This document shows, piece by piece, positions 21,001-27,000 of a stretch of DNA of 36,150 nt; position 1 is the first letter of the stretch, and each line of letters opens with the position of its first letter. The stretch lies in IMG/VR virus record IMGVR_UViG_2534682139_000010, one strand, 5' to 3'. Origin of the DNA: a virus (lineage: Duplodnaviria > Heunggongvirae > Uroviricota > Caudoviricetes). Made by a program: the position numbers.

Positions 21001-24000
21001 TGAAGCTCGTTGTGATGCTCCCGACACAGCGGTAGCGTGAAAATATCGTGGGATTTTGTTCCCATTCCACCCTGACCATGACCAATCAGATGATGAGGAT
21101 CGTCCGCTGGCTTACCACAACACGCACACGGCTGTGTCTTTACCCAGCGTGTGTATTTCTCATTTACCCAGCGGCGACGTTTAGGTCGTTTCATGAAGGA
21201 TTCCGGAGACTCCGGATCAACGGCAATGCTGACCACCGTCTTTTCCTGTGGTGGGTTCTGTTGCTGGTGGGTGTGAGGCGGTAGCGCAATATTTTTTGTG
21301 CGCTGCTTCAGTATGCTGGTGGCGGCCTGTTCTCCCGGTATGATGTCGCTTTCGCGGTACAAGGAGCGGATTTTTTCCACACGTAACCCCAGAGAACGAC
21401 GTAATACGGCCTCCGGTAGCGCGTCCGCCACCTGATTGCAGACCGCCCACCAGGATAATTCAGCCAGAGATAATTCACGCTCCTGCGTACCGCTTATTGC
21501 GTGACCGATGACGTCAATCATCCATGCTGACAGGTTTTGATGAGCAAGTTGCTCGAGTGATTCGGATGTCTGGTCCCGTAGCTGGTTGTCGCAGTGCCAG
21601 CACAACACCATTGCGCCGGTACCATAACGGTGAATGACAGTTTCGCTGTGGTGATAATCGCCGTGTGGCCACTGGCAGGATTTAATATGGCGCAACAGCC
21701 AGTCAGACAATGCACCAGCACCACCAGCAGCACGAATCACTCGTTCGTCGCTGAAAAATGGCAGCAATGTTTTGTCTTCCACCAGCGGCTGGCGAACGGC
21801 AGGAACGACCCCGGACGGCAGATTACGCATGCTTTTCGGTTCCGGCTCCACCAGTACCCGGGTATTGTGAAATACCTGCATGGATTCACGACCTGGCTTA
21901 AGGACCACCAGCCCGAGTTCCGGTACCAGAACAGGTCGAAGTAATACCCGCACGTTACCTCCAGATCCGTTGCTGGAATGTGCGGGACGGACGCGGTGGG
22001 CGTTCGGAGTAAGGAAGCCTGACGGAGATTATCCAGTGACGATAATCGAGGCTGAGGGCTTTCCTAAACTCATACCCACGTCTGCGGTAGTTCTGAATCA
22101 GCCATTCGGCCTGTTCTTCAGTGCATGGGTCGTGCCGGAACCAGTCAGATTTGAATGCATGAGAACGCCGCCCGTGCCTGCTGGCAAAGACGGCTGAATT
22201 ATCAGAATTGTGTAGTCTGGAATTTTGCGCCATCGGCTTTCTCCGGTGGCACAGTGTTACTCAACAGGGGTTCAGCCCTGCGCTGAATTGTAGATGAATT
22301 CACTCATCTTCAAAAGCAGAAAAACCAGCCTTAATCCCAGCGTCTTTCAGAGACGGCAACGATGTGACAAATTCATTTGCACGCAAAATAAAACCATCCG
22401 TCACAAGCCCATCCACAAAATGAATTAACGCAGCTCCACTCTTCCTTTGTTGAGACTGTAAACATTTAATACGGCAGTGGCTGACAATAGCGCCATTCTC
22501 AACGCGCACAGTATAGAGGCCATCTTCACTAAAAATTTCACGTAATTCTTCGATTTTCATCAACAGAATCCTTCCAGATAAATAGCACTCCCCTGTTCGG
22601 GGTCCATCCCTCTTCTCCCTGCGCGCTACTTAAGTATTTTTGATTCTATTCCGGCGCCGTCCGGAACTTCAAACGCGTTGAAAATAAAAACAAAAACCCG
22701 CCGAAGCGGGTTAAGTGCGGGTGCGTTGAGGATGCCTGACACATCAGAGGTGGCGAGGGATTTCTCCCCCGCCTGGTCTCTTACTCCTCAGGTTCGTAAG
22801 CTGTGAAGACAGCGACCTCCGTCTGGCCGGTTCGGATTCGTACCTCGCAGAGGTCTTTCCTCGTTACCAGTGCCGTCACTATGACGGTTAAACAGATGAC
22901 GATCAGGGCGATTAACATCGCCTTTTGCTGCTTCATAGCCTGCTTCTCCTTGACCTTTCGGTCCGTAAGAGGCAATCTATATGTGACGAGCATATAGGGG
23001 CCTCACTTCGATTTATAGTCGGGTGGGGCTTTTATCTATCTGCCGTTGGTGTTCATGCCCGAGGCAGATAGCCTCAAGCACCCGCAGCAATTCTACTTAA
23101 CTCTGCCGTTACAGCAAGCCGTTTTCGTCCGATATGGGAATTCCCATATCGGAATGAATTCAGTTCACCTGGCGAGGCTTAGCGTACAATTTTTTCCGTT
23201 TTGTGAGCTGCCCCTACATGCCGCTGGCGCGGCATCCGGAAAAAGAATCCACGTCCTGAAGGACGTGGAGGATGTCAAGTGCCTTTCCTGGTCCAGCCAT
23301 ATTTTTTGAATGCAGGCGCCGCTTCATCGGTTTGTAGCCATTCTGCAAATCGACGGGTTTCATCATTTGCATCCTGACGTACTGTAATGTTCATATCACG
23401 CCATATCACGTAGTCTGGCGCTATTTCCACGACATCACCAATTTCTGGATTACTGGCTGCCCAGTCAGCCCAGGTTATCCAGACATCTGCTTCAGGCTGA
23501 TTCTCAAGAGCCTTACGTGCAGTTCCGCTATTGGGCGCATATAAAATAATATTTTTTCGGATTGCGGCGACAGTTTCTATATTCCCTTTACGTCCGGCAA
23601 TATCTTCCCAGACGCCAGTGCCTGATGTATTACTGGTACCACCACCATCATTAACAATTACGCCAATCCCGGGTCTGGTCAGGTCGTCAATACTCCGGAT
23701 ATTTTTAGGATTACCTTTCTTTACCAGTAAAATACTTTTTCGCAGATAAAGAGGCTGAATATCTTTTTCACTGAAGCTGTCTTTATGGTCCCGAATGATA
23801 GCCAGAGCAGATTGTTCTGATGCGCCAAACAAGATATCTGCATTTTTTTTGGCATCTTCATTCCATTTGTTCTGTGGGCCGTAATGAACGTTCACTATAA
23901 TACCTGTTTTTTCGGCATAAAGTTTGGCTGCATCAAGCAAGGCTGTATGCGGGCCACCAGGACCATACAGATTGATATCAGCATAAGCAGCAGAAGACAG

Positions 24001-27000
24001 GAATATTAAAAAACCTGCCATTATGTTCCTCATAAAAAACTCCTTTTATTGGTTATCATGAAATAAAGTTATAAACACTACAAATAATATATATTACATC
24101 CAGATAAACTTATCCGACTTTACCTCGTGCATAGCTTGTTATTTAAAGTTAACAAAATAAGGAAAATTATACGCATATTGAAGAGTATAAACCTTACATG
24201 TTGATTACATTTTTGTAATCAACATCCTGTTTGGAATAGCCAGCCTTTAATGGATAACTATTTCTGACAATGCAATGAGTATAATCAAGTCCATCTTCCA
24301 CTGAGAATTAGAGGCGGCATGCTTTTTCCGGCTCTTGCCGGATATCCGTAATTGTCCATAATCTGCAGATTTATACCTTCAGCATGACCTGCCAGCGAAA
24401 ATTTGTCCGGTGTTTCTACGGAAATAACATCAAAAGTTACACGCACTCGCGTTACCGTGTAGACCTACTTTCCTGCACTTGCAAGATCACAGTGGTGTAA
24501 CCGTAACAGGAATTTATTCTCTGGACCGGCAGTAAATCCCTGAGTGGCGTGGTTCCCATATCAATTTCCAGCCAGGCAGCCTCCATTGCCAGCGTACTGG
24601 CTGGAGCCATGACCTGCCCTTTAAATCTGGCCCGACCATCCCACCGGACGTGTTCTTCTCCCCTGAACTTAGGTACAGTCATCTCCAGTGGCACAAAAGT
24701 GTCAGCGCCATGATTTTTGACCGTTATCGCGCTACGGATATTTTGTTGACTGGTGAAAATTACCCCGCAGAATCAGGCTTATTCCCTTAACCCGGGCTTT
24801 CATCCTGACCGCCGCCTCACTACGACCAATCAGACTGCCGATGCATTTTACCTTCATTGTTAGTATCATAATTTCAGGCCTGCACCATCCGCTCATTGCC
24901 CGGACTTCCGACAAATCCCGGCAACCATATCTCGGTGCTTGTTCAGCTCCCGCAGCGCGGCGCAGACTCGCTCCCACTTCTGGACATGACTTTTCGCCCG
25001 ACGCAATTCGCGGTTTGCCATATGCAGCGATGGTAAAACCAGGTCATCCGCTCGCGTTTCAGTAAACGATGGCAACGATTGCACAATATCAGCCACAGTT
25101 TCTGTTTTAATATCTTCCTGTGTTGCAGCTTCCTGTACTGGTAACGCAACACCTGCTGACTGAGGAAAGGCTTTACCATCATTTTCCGTTACCGGCACGG
25201 ATTTCGGCTCTGCTGGTAACTTATCGCCCGGCATGCAGTAACGAAATTTACCGTTCTGGTTTACACGAATCAGACGACCTTTGCTGATTGCCATTGCCAG
25301 CGTTGAAGCCACTTTGCGTGATGTTGTACCGAACAACGTAGCCAGCTCATCAGCCGTTTGTGGTCCGCGTTGTTCAACCGTCGCAGTTAAATCGCACTCC
25401 GAAATTTTAGCGACTGTTGCCGTGGTGGTTTCTTCCGACAGTTCTGCCGGCGCTGGCTGTTCCTGCTGAACGTTGTTATAAGCCACACGCCAGGTGTATA
25501 CGCTTTTATCAACGAAGCCAGCCTTTCTCAGTTCCCACAGCTCGTTCAGCACTTCTTCACGACTGATATCAAGTCGCGCAGCCAGCTCTACCGACGTGGC
25601 TTTTCCCATCGCTTTCAGTGCGTCAAAAACAGTCTCCATAAATTTCCTCCCGGTAAAAATTACTTCTCAAATCAGACAAACCCAGCCGCTTTCCGGCGTT
25701 CATATTCCTGTTTCAGCAACTCAATTGGCGTTGGTCCCGCAGGACGTTTGGGTGCTGCCAGTTGTCGCCGGACAGGCGGAACACTCAGGCCGTTGCTAAC
25801 ATGCTTTGCCCATTTCGTCAGCTGCCGTTCTGCAAGCCGTTTTAACTCCCCTTCGGTCATCTGGCGTTCAATCCCCTTTGAACGCATCTCGAGGCAAATG
25901 TGATACAGCACAGGCTGAGACCACGGGTACTTATCACTTCCGTCGTATCGCCAGGACTCATTGCGCCAGCGGCGGTACTCCTCCATCACAGCATCCACCG
26001 TCAGACCAAATGGATTGGCCCCGCTTTCCGAAATCAGCGCCACAAACTCAGCCAGGTCCGGAGGCCATGTTTCACCCGCCCGGCAGCAGTCCATGCACTG
26101 GCGGCAGACCTGCCGGATTTGCTGCTCAGTCATCGCGCCAATCTGTGCAATCCAGAGCTTCGAAGGTGCGGCCCCGTTCTTCTGGGTCCAGCGGTTCGAA
26201 TAAACCTCCCCCATGAGCTCCCACAGCTTCCAGGCCGTTTCCGTCGCTGATAAATCCGTTTTCACGTTCCCACTGCTCACGTGCTGCCCGAATTTCCTGA
26301 ACTGCCCGTGATGCGGTTCCACCTGGTGCTGCTGCATGGTTTACCCCCTTGCTGACTGGTTTAACCTGCGCCCTGACGTGATTTACGTGACGGGCGAATT
26401 TCTGCTCCCACTGAACCTGCGTAAACACTTTCCCCTCCGCTGCCCAGTAGTCCCGGAATGCGGCAAGTTCAGCAGGTGTGAATTCTGTCTCCGGCAAAGC
26501 CATCCCCCACAACGCAGCCCGTCGTCGAAAATCCCGTGACGGATACCAGTTATCGGTCATCGGAAATTTTCCGATGGGTTCGCTCAGGCCATCCAGGAAT
26601 ACAGGGGGGACTGCCTGTAACGACAAAACTTCCTGCTCACTGGTCGGAGCACTCTCGCGTGCGTTATGTGTGGGGTTTAAATCTTTGGGTTCCTTTGGGT
26701 TCCGTGATCCGTTTTTGGGTGTCTTTGATGGAAAATTTGGGTGTCTTTGGTTATTTTCCATGCAGCAAAGAGTTCCGTTTTTGGGGCTGTTTTGTGCTGA
26801 AACATAACCGTTTTCGGTTCTGTTTTTATTAACAGTACCAATTTTACCTACCTTTAAAGACTCCCGTTTTTGGGTGTATTCATCCTCGGTAACACTTTCT
26901 TCAACACCGATAAGTCGGTACACCACAATTTGTTTTGTCCGGCCTTTTCTCTCACCGGTATCAACAATTAACCCAATCTCCATCAGGTGTCGTAAGCTGT

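Follow-up and report, generated by a model that had tools for sequence, protein, structure and literature searches.

Identity of the gene

A gene for a solute-binding protein that stands by itself in a phage genome had been described in an earlier note on the window analyzed here, which is the whole 36,150-nt stretch of IMG/VR record IMGVR_UViG_2534682139_000010 (Caudoviricetes), and was interpreted as an independently regulated cargo gene with a palindromic operator and a terminator of its own. Its DNA is 100% identical to a copy in E. coli O103:H2 12009 and to copies in other STEC, and the product of the former is named “AcfC family adhesin Paa” in RefSeq (WP_001815900.1). In PPompW phages the gene is annotated as Paa/AdfO at 99.2% DNA identity, and a match to phrog_11834 was obtained with an E-value of 2.5e-176. 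The full locus was present in 576 of 5426 complete E. coli genomes; some related prophages lacked it. By its sequence, the “orphan binding protein” is thus identified as paa/adfO, an already known colonization gene of pathogenic E. coli, and a prophage-borne moron coding for a protein of the AcfC/PEB3/Paa family is very probably the best explanation of the locus as a whole. The main finding is therefore a rediscovery that adds little to what is known of paa/adfO.

The name paa stands for “porcine attaching-and-effacing associated” colonization factor, and the gene is already in use as a marker for virulent E. coli of the Shiga-toxin-producing, attaching-effacing, and enterotoxigenic types. The same gene is known from attaching-effacing and enterotoxigenic strains (z2053 in O island 57 of EDL933) and from the PPompW phages, where flanks, the hokD/ckf neighbor, and the prophage region are all shared with the window and no substantive difference is found. 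The start in the PPompW records is annotated four codons downstream, at a non-conserved ATG. As this second ATG (M5) is ATA, coding for isoleucine, in four plasmid homologues, the first ATG is the likely start of paa. The constant linkage of adfO/paa and ckf in O island 57 has been reported (PMC8565820).

Protein family, fold, and signal peptide

Paa matches the Pfam family SBP_bac_11 with 120 bits (E 1.6e-34, cut-off 25). When compared with sequences of solved crystal structures, residues 11-248 aligned to PEB3 (E 4.1e-82) and residues 16-248 to AcfC (E 1.5e-81), with 54 and 52% identity over the full length, respectively. In an alignment of Paa, four plasmid variants, PEB3, and AcfC, the motifs LYGPGGPH, SNTSGT(G/A)VWED, PNSGxARK, and WITW were invariant, and these presumably contain the ligand-contact residues. 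A single-sequence AlphaFold model was unusable (pLDDT 39.1), and the two-lobe binding-protein fold is instead suggested by the 54% identity to crystallized homologues. While assignment of the product to the binding proteins thus held, the ModA/TupA-like character originally proposed for it did not. TIGR01256 scored 18.6 bits against a cut-off of 62.5, other ModA models 12-18 bits against 253-470, and Sbp 21.6 bits against 155.5; a ModA/TupA-type operon (modBC, tupBC) was likewise rejected, no permease and ATPase genes lying beside paa. The ModA, TupA, and Sbp-CysP oxyanion-binding proteins of ABC importers have in common with Paa the Pfam level (SBP_bac_11) and the anion-binding fold class, but they differ by their ABC partner genes, and Paa, which has neither permease nor ATPase, scores far under their cut-offs.

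At the N-terminus of Paa, MRNIMAGFLIFLSSAAYA|DINLYGPGG, the n-region is basic and is followed by a hydrophobic core and the cleavage motif AYA, and crystal constructs of mature PEB3 begin at the residue aligned with D19 of Paa. The signal peptide claimed for the protein was accordingly recovered as a prediction with n-, h-, and c-regions and cleavage at AYA|D, and Paa would be exported via Sec to the periplasm. Among the closest counterparts, PEB3 of Campylobacter jejuni (PDB 2HXW, 3FIR, 3FJ7, 3FJG, 3FJM) shares the invariant motifs and the lack of an ABC partner with Paa and has a signal peptide like the one predicted for Paa, but is chromosomal, unlike the prophage-borne paa. AcfC of Vibrio cholerae (PDB 4JB7) is, like Paa, a colonization factor on a mobile pathogenicity element with no transporter. 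PEB3 is described as a periplasmic glycoprotein (PMC5976639).

Absence of transporter genes and possible function

No permease or ATPase gene was found near paa in the window. Among 69 homologous loci drawn from many phyla, none had an ABC ATPase (an ORF with Walker A and LSGGQ) within 3.5 kb of the paa homologue, and no conserved permease/ATPase cluster occurred near paa homologues in the neighborhoods compared. The claimed absence of a transporter partner was therefore borne out, also at the level of homologous loci. Plasmid copies of paa adjoin STa, IS1, repA, and similar genes.

That Paa works in transport by docking on a transporter, ABC or other, whose genes lie elsewhere in the chromosome, such as the sulfate/thiosulfate system CysPUWA, is very unlikely. 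This would agree with the binding-protein fold and with low-scoring, partial matches to proteins that bind sulfate and thiosulfate (19-23 bits; 1SBP, E 5e-4), but transporter genes adjoin none of the 69 loci, the gene travels alone on plasmids and phages, AcfC is tied to chemotaxis, and the distant homologues have ECF sigma factors, LysR regulators, sulfite-oxidase-like enzymes, and SLAC1 channels as neighbors instead. The family-wide absence of transporters and the ECF-sigma and sulfite-oxidase neighbors favor sensing over transport, which bears on how the Paa “adhesin” works. Paa would bind a small or polymer-borne anion and may aid colonization through sensing, chemotaxis, or surface interaction, and not through nutrient uptake.

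An adfO mutant adhered poorly to HeLa cells (PMC8565820), and contents of the bovine rumen and rectum induced paa (PMC8524897). AcfC was found by experiment to be periplasmic, to bind sulfated glycans and mucin, and to affect chemotaxis towards mucin; it had no role in cell adhesion, unlike what has been reported for Paa and PEB3 (PMC5976639). As AcfC is non-adhesive, the label “adhesin” may not describe the mechanism of Paa. For PEB3, 3-phosphoglycerate and phosphoenolpyruvate are given as ligands in a review table (PMC8835900). In the papers examined, no transcription start, regulator, or ligand of Paa was found.

Prophage setting and anatomy of the insert

The element that carries paa is a defective lambda-like prophage integrated at ydfJ and bearing four IS3-family insertions. 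The gene lies in the nin region between hokD (22781..22936) and the replication genes, as had been claimed, and is oriented on the same strand as P, DUF968, RusA, and Q. GC content falls to 0.27-0.47, with 0.265 at 24000-24199 in the upstream region of paa, compared to 0.50-0.58 in the flanks, in agreement with the AT-rich upstream region described before. The features of the region are collected in Table 1.

Table 1. Features in and around the paa insert, with coordinates in the window.
Feature	Coordinates	Strand	Remarks
hokD/sok type I toxin-antitoxin locus (“ckf” in literature)	22781..23083	-	Rfam sok, 103.9 bits
26-bp perfect palindrome, 22-bp core CGATATGGGAATTCCCATATCG	23128..23153	.	Upstream of hok/sok; related to KilA-N-gene motif
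Lone Tn3-family terminal inverted repeat (GGGGCAGCTCACAAAACGGAAAAAATTGTACGCTAAG) and ~10 bp of tnpA 3' end	23168..23215	-	Abuts downstream end of cassette
paa cassette (upstream region, gene, two hairpins)	23215..24238	-	85-89% identity with many plasmid copies
Second conserved hairpin, ATGCCGC-gcca-GCGGCAT	23218..23235	-	Immediately 3' of terminator
Intrinsic terminator	23240..23269	-	9-10 bp GC-rich stem, 2-4 nt loop, then TTCTTTTT
paa (adfO) CDS	23275..24033	-	252 aa; DNA identity, Pfam SBP_bac_11, PEB3/AcfC homology
Predicted Sec signal peptide	23980..24033	-	Residues 1-18, cleavage AYA|D; sequence features
Ribosome-binding site AAGGAG	24040..24045	-	6 nt ahead of ATG; conserved in cassette variants
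Candidate -10 hexamer TATAAT	24166..24171	-	Only -10-like element 5' of paa that is both perfect and invariant; a good -35 is lacking
12-bp perfect inverted repeat, ATGTTGATTACA-N4-TGTAATCAACAT	24198..24225	.	Arms 24198-24209 and 24214-24225, 4-nt spacer
papH-like minor pilin pseudogene	24239..24727	-	Frameshifted, last ~13 codons gone, fused to paa cassette

The insert is a patchwork of ~1.55 kb that consists of a truncated papH-like pilin gene, the 1.0-kb paa cassette, and a lone Tn3-family terminal repeat. Intact papH-like copies occur as the second gene in pap-like chaperone-usher operons. Positions 23178-23215 match the Tn3-family terminal-repeat pattern (~38 bp, GGGG...ACGCTAAG, at the tnpA 3' end) with one mismatch, and 23168-23214 share 91.5% identity with the 3' terminus of a tnpA pseudogene (Tn3 family) carried by pVR50B. 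As no partner repeat was found in the window, the repeat is considered a lone scar. In two prophages without paa, the flank on the hok side is the same and the insert is missing, and the phage backbone picks up again on the replication side near 24725.

The paa-less prophages with the same backbone, the deviating GC content, and the terminator support the claimed status of paa as cargo, a moron in a lambdoid prophage. Like bor and lom of lambda, it is a single cargo gene in the backbone that deviates in base composition, has a terminator to itself, and functions in host phenotype, but the paa moron differs from these in being visibly pieced together from plasmid or island DNA and in having only a candidate promoter. 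The anatomy of the insert shows the prophage copy to be an assembly of DNA of plasmid or island type and defines the unit moving between plasmids and phages.

Upstream region and candidate promoter

The 12-bp inverted repeat exists as described and is set 13 nt in from the left border of the paa cassette. In RefSeq it is included in the tail of a “fimbrial” pseudogene, but the DNA there belongs to the cassette. Of perfect inverted repeats with arms of 12 bp or longer that are no more than 10 bp apart, the window has four different ones, where simulations with a first-order Markov model of the window give 0.04, so that these repeats are not a product of chance. The motifs of this repeat and of the 26-bp palindrome are each single copy in the window (0/100 shuffles). 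Across nine cassette variants, the TATAAT hexamer was unchanged, and within the repeat only the ATTACA-AAAA-TGTAAT core (6-4-6) and the bases rightward of it were invariant. A consensus promoter scan yielded no two-hexamer promoter between the repeat and paa. The repeat would lie about 27-54 bp upstream of TATAAT, probably with no overlap of the core promoter.

The role of the repeat as a true operator, on which a dimeric repressor would shut off paa, is improbable. Its perfect arms go far past chance, and it sits in a conserved block upstream of paa with a core shared by all nine variants, but in seven of the nine the left arm has changes in its outer 5 bp, with the right arm fixed, so that selection on the half-sites is not symmetric. 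In addition, it lies upstream of the -35 position predicted from the sole invariant TATAAT, no regulator gene accompanies the cassette, and no second copy is present in the window. From this pattern of conservation, the repeat is read as a conserved promoter-upstream element and not as a classical operator. Of the independent regulation proposed for the gene, the cargo status, the terminator, and the AT-rich upstream region consequently stand, and the palindromic operator does not.

It is possible, though doubtful, that an activator or architectural protein (e.g., IHF-like) binds the invariant block ATTACAAAAATGTAATCAA..TGTAAGG, helps a promoter that has a perfect -10 but no -35, and counters silencing of the AT-rich region. 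Block and TATAAT are invariant as the remaining upstream region varies, no -35 is recognizable, TGTAA(T/G) occurs three times, with two as direct repeats 11 bp apart, and GC content is 0.27. The A-tract of the block followed by AATCAA-N4-TAA is one mismatch away from the IHF-like motif WATCAANNNNTTR. The case for such a site is one of motif matching, however, and the nine variants represent few lineages, which makes their invariance weak evidence. With a TATAAT and no -35, the paa promoter probably depends on an activator or architectural protein. In the lysogen, transcription of paa probably starts in an AT-rich promoter region belonging to the gene (TATAAT 24166-24171); as the gene is co-directional with the replication genes and Q, early phage read-through after induction is possible. 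The promoter-upstream block and the perfect -10 offer a concrete target for the regulation of paa.

Terminator and downstream hairpins

The terminator claimed downstream of the gene was found at coordinates right within a base or two. Its stem arms lie at 23248-23257 and 23260-23269, with TTCTTTTT next on the minus strand, and the 81-nt region folds with -33 kcal/mol (z -2.9). One compensatory pair occurs in the stem of plasmid Sx181, and the hairpin is lost by a 9-nt deletion in two plasmid variants. Because some plasmid variants have lost it or carry a weaker version, the terminator is not indispensable. In the prophage, it would shield hok/sok from paa transcription.

The 26-bp palindrome

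The 26-bp palindrome is present as reported, but its place in the paa unit was not upheld, as it is absent from plasmid cassettes and present upstream of hok in paa-less prophages. By these comparisons it is phage backbone, a copy of a widespread phage DNA element, and forms a separate small puzzle in phage biology. The core CGATATGGGAATTCCCATATCG is encoded in frame as DMGIPIS within KilA-N-domain genes. An inert scrap of a deleted KilA-N gene upstream of hok is a rather unlikely origin, even with the flank GAATGAATTCAG resembling the KilA-N sequence GAGTTAATTCAA, with related prophages having KilA-N genes at the same position beside hok, and with no intact KilA-N gene in the window. Against it, the 22-mer is nearly invariant at synonymous sites of 39 diverged KilA-N proteins, with a minor-allele fraction of 0.07 at third positions compared to 0.36-0.41 in two other equally conserved KilA-N motifs; it also recurs in more than 15 unrelated flanks (contigs of 27-66% GC), and the copy in the window is extended to 26 perfect bp. 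These three observations argue for a function exerted by the DNA or RNA itself. It is possible, though less likely than not, that the palindrome is an orphan copy of a cis-element that a DNA-binding protein would recognize (perhaps the KilA-N protein, binding within its own gene) or that serves as a recombination or processing signal, and that this copy, kept upstream of hok/sok beside the paa insert, still acts on transcription or rearrangement of the region. The KilA-N proteins that carry the core are only 51-60% identical and come from contigs of 27-57% GC.

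Identity of the paa gene and its product

The solitary ORF is the already known virulence-associated gene paa (adfO). In a megablast search with segment 22600-24700, 100% identity was seen in numerous Shiga-toxin-producing strains, among them E. coli O103:H2 12009, where the ORF is labelled "paa: AcfC family adhesin Paa". At least 80% of this segment was found in 576 of 5426 complete genomes. PPompW prophage records matched with 99.2% identity and name the gene Paa/AdfO. The product, Paa, belongs to phrog_11834 (E 2.5e-176) and was assigned to SBP_bac_11 with 120 bits (cut-off 25, E 1.6e-34). 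Its closest relatives with solved structures, PEB3 of Campylobacter jejuni and AcfC of Vibrio cholerae, aligned over the full length with 54 and 52% identity (E 4e-82 and 1.5e-81), respectively. The motifs LYGPGGPH, SNTSGT(G/A)VWED, PNSGxARK, and WITW are invariant in the alignment of Paa, four plasmid variants, PEB3, and AcfC. Models of ModA, Sbp, and CysP scored 12-23 bits, far under their cut-offs, and the earlier description as "ModA/TupA-like" therefore holds at the level of the superfamily but not of the family.

The N-terminus, MRNIMAGFLIFLSSAAYA|D, resembles a Sec signal peptide, and D19 is the alignment start of mature PEB3 crystal constructs. The start used in PPompW records is the second ATG, but each of the four plasmid homologues has ATA there, so that translation of paa likely begins at the first ATG. 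A single-sequence structure model of Paa was unusable (pLDDT 39).

Previous work described adfO (z2053) as similar to Paa, with poor adherence to HeLa cells and fewer secreted proteins in the adfO mutant, and ckf (z2054) always accompanies adfO in O island 57 (PMC8565820). The neighbour corresponding to ckf in the window is hokD. For AcfC, a periplasmic location was described, along with binding to heparin, chondroitin sulfate, and mucin and an effect on chemotaxis towards mucin; it did not mediate cell adhesion (PMC5976639). Ligands of PEB3 are listed in a review table as phosphoenolpyruvate and 3-phosphoglycerate (PMC8835900). Contents of the bovine rumen and rectum induced paa/adfO in EDL933 (PMC8524897). 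PPompW prophages are defective and lambda-like and carry type III effector loci (PMC8112680). A literature search returned no paper on a promoter or regulator of paa, and one for Z2053/ECs1772 gave nothing useful.

Features in and around the paa insert and IS3-family markers of the window
Feature	Position	Strand	Description
26-bp palindrome	23128-23153		perfect, 13+13 bp; repeat finder
Tn3-family terminal repeat	23178-23215		GGGGCAGCTCACAAAACGGAAAAAATTGTACGCTAAG; adjoins downstream cassette end
Terminator hairpin	23248-23269	-	10-bp stem, 2-nt loop, then TTCTTTTT; repeat finder and terminator scan
paa ORF	23275..24033	-	252 aa; Pfam SBP_bac_11
Inverted repeat	24198-24225		12-bp perfect arms, 4-nt spacer; repeat finder
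papH-like minor pilin pseudogene	24239-24727		cut short by cassette fusion
ALIL frameshift pseudoknots	5207-5322, 9308-9424, 29681-29797, 35218-35334	+	mark IS3-family insertions

Anatomy of the insert

Plasmid copies of paa, annotated merely as "substrate-binding domain-containing protein", shared 85-89% identity with the window across 24237..23212 and nothing beyond. They occur in unrelated contexts, beside an STa enterotoxin gene, IS1, IS21, IS110, repA, and others. As the shared stretch is limited in this way and the contexts are unrelated, the mobile unit is a cassette of ~1.0 kb with the upstream region, paa, and two hairpins.

A papH-like minor pilin gene is fused to the cassette at the upstream junction (24238/24239). 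In pap-like chaperone-usher operons, intact homologues with 85% identity occupy the second position and run ~13 codons beyond the point where the window turns to cassette sequence. The final 40 nt of the RefSeq "fimbrial pseudogene" (24194..24727), including the inverted repeat, are thus paa cassette DNA. On the downstream side, the Tn3-family repeat has its match on pVR50B, where such a terminal repeat lies at the 3' end of a Tn3-family tnpA. The copy in the window has its outer end towards paa and forms together with ~10 bp of the tnpA 3' end a scar at 23168-23215. No partner repeat was found within the window, and the terminal repeat is a lone scar.

Homology to the phage backbone restarts at ~23175 on the hok side and ~24725 on the replication side. 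On the hok side of paa-less prophages, a 35-aa ORF is followed by the palindrome and then hok, and the paa insert occupies the place of this ORF in the window. The ORF is hydrophobic (MSDDISLVMEGALAVIAVVGVYCLVVFLMDRLGN; 3065-3169 and 3066-3170 in the paa-less relatives L007 and L008, respectively, just upstream of the palindrome) and had no match in Pfam. The insert is a patchwork brought in from plasmid- or island-type DNA. With phage backbone on both sides of the insert and paa-less prophages in existence, the reading of paa as a moron, or cargo gene, is right.

Upstream region and inverted repeat

The region upstream of paa is AT-rich, with a GC content of 0.265 at 24000-24199 versus 0.50-0.58 in the flanks. 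Four perfect inverted repeats in the window combine arms of 12 bp or longer with a spacer no longer than 10 bp, compared to a mean of 0.04 in first-order Markov simulations of the window. Besides those at 23128-23153 and 24198-24225, such repeats, equally improbable by chance, lie at 4517-4550 and 14244-14276, with arms of 12-13 bp and spacers of 10 and 7 nt, respectively.

Across nine cassette variants, whose left flanks are of at least four kinds, the block ATTACAAAAATGTAATCAA..TGTAAGGTTTAT.CTC..CA..AT.C.TATAAT is invariant. In the left arm, the outer 5 bp are variable: the window and one plasmid have GTTG, the others GTGC, GTAC, GGGC, or GGGT. Perfect 12-bp symmetry is therefore lineage-specific, and the general part is a 6-4-6 palindrome only, while the right-hand flank of the repeat is asymmetrically conserved. 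The TATAAT at 24171-24166 is the sole perfect and invariant -10-like element upstream of paa; neither a promoter scan nor inspection found a -35-like sequence ahead of it. If it serves as a -10, the inverted repeat would be centred at about -52, a location that fits an activator or architectural protein and not a repressor operator. With only the 6-4-6 core general, the flank conserved on one side, and the centre at this distance, the "palindromic operator" proposed earlier is unsupported. The repeat is instead a conserved promoter-upstream element with a putative binding partner.

Known regulators were compared with the repeat by eye and rejected. The spacing was wrong for Fur, Zur, and NikR, the sequence for CRP, ArgR, and ModE, and both orientation and spacing for TyrR, and a PhoB box would lie one helical turn too distant from the -10. 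As an RNA terminator, the repeat would form an AU-rich stem of -14 kcal/mol without a U-tract, and this reading was rejected. The RefSeq coordinates would make the repeat the last part of the fimbrial pseudogene; this was rejected too, as intact papH-like genes diverge from the window at 24238/24239.

Conservation of the upstream region did not extend beyond E. coli, as the E. albertii chromosomal and Edwardsiella copies carry unrelated DNA, and the near-identical IMG/VR prophage copies provided no covariation. Among the IMG/VR loci L090-L148, one paa locus of the prophage type has an IS end (TGAACCGCCCCGGG...), presumably of the IS3 family, inserted directly upstream of the invariant TATAAT; it would split paa from the inverted-repeat block.

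Terminator and read-through

The proposed terminator was borne out by a hairpin with a U-tract, the 81-nt region folding with -33 kcal/mol (z = -2.9). Hairpin and U-tract are kept in the prophage lineage and some plasmids, with a single compensatory pair (n=1; GTCC/GGAC to GTTC/GAAC in Sx181), but the hairpin is not kept in every variant: a 9-nt deletion in two plasmid variants takes out its 5' arm. Most cassette variants have another hairpin, ATGCCGC-gcca-GCGGCAT, downstream of it. Because the replication genes and those for DUF968, RusA, and the Q-type antiterminator lie on the same strand as paa, early phage transcription could plausibly read through into paa once the prophage is induced.

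Neighbourhoods of Paa homologues

A scan with one genome per species yielded 80 loci with relatives of Paa, 69 of which were analysed for neighbours. Relatives with 50-87% identity occurred in Escherichia albertii, Edwardsiella, Helicobacter, Campylobacter, Vibrio, one spirochaete, and one Coxiellales genome, while those with 40-48% identity (L024-L089) form a large clade of mostly Alphaproteobacteria and some Burkholderia, Bordetella, and Citrobacter. The orphan status asserted for the gene stood, as none of the 69 loci had an ORF with both Walker A and LSGGQ within 3.5 kb of the homologue, and no conserved permease cluster was seen beside the homologues. The recurrent neighbours in the distant clade were an ECF sigma factor (27 loci), a putative anti-sigma protein (18), a LysR regulator (15), a sulfite-oxidase-type molybdoenzyme (10), a SLAC1/TehA anion channel (9), and a c-type cytochrome (8). 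These neighbourhoods favour oxyanion sensing over transport and hint at a sulfur-oxyanion sensing role for the distant homologues.

The chromosomal homologue of E. albertii NBRC 107761 (L010:6001-6762, 87% identity) has unrelated upstream DNA, and its neighbours, read off ORF translations, are what we take to be sugar-phosphate and PTS genes.

The 26-bp palindrome and KilA-N genes

All features listed in the earlier note (ORF, 12-bp inverted repeat, terminator hairpin, 26-bp palindrome, and AT-rich upstream region) were present; its observation was accurate and its interpretation right in part. The paa locus is already known; the side observation on the palindrome in KilA-N genes is the only one that might surprise a specialist.

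The 26-bp palindrome is outside the paa unit. It is absent from plasmid cassettes and lies upstream of hok in paa-less prophages as well. Its 22-bp core occurred 133 times in the fetched IMG/VR contigs, ~95 of them in the same hok-upstream context, and was also found in more than 15 unrelated flanks on contigs of 27-66% GC. KilA-N-domain genes contain the identical 22-mer too, as the codons for DMGIPIS (KilA-N and 22-mer loci L256-L335, L200, L232, L171, L176, and L193).

Variation at third codon positions was compared between three conserved motifs in 39 distinct KilA-N proteins of 51-100% identity, retrieved by degenerate peptide patterns. The minor-allele fractions were 0.41 for DGYxNAT and 0.36 for GTWVHP, with 25 and 26 distinct nucleotide versions, respectively, versus 0.07 for DMGIPIS with five versions, the main variant of which is GGA/GGG. 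Within KilA-N genes, the palindrome is thus under nucleotide-level selection. The flank of the palindrome in the window resembles the KilA-N flank, the window has no KilA-N gene, and its palindrome is probably a retained fragment of such a gene. Folded as RNA, either strand of the palindrome would give a stem of 11 bp (-21 to -24 kcal/mol) without a U-tract. A literature search for Roi/HK022 as a precedent of a binding site within a gene gave nothing, and a tblastn search for phage homologues of Roi, a KilA-N protein, named none.

Prophage context

The window begins in ydfJ, and its positions 15287-29346 are 99.9% identical to the O103:H2 12009 prophage at ydfJ. Four IS3-family copies, all on the plus strand, were found in the window, compared to only one in the corresponding O103:H2 12009 region. 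The prophage also carries a DicF antisense RNA gene (31340-31391, 77 bits) and a match to the STnc100 sRNA (18762-18928, 101.6 bits).
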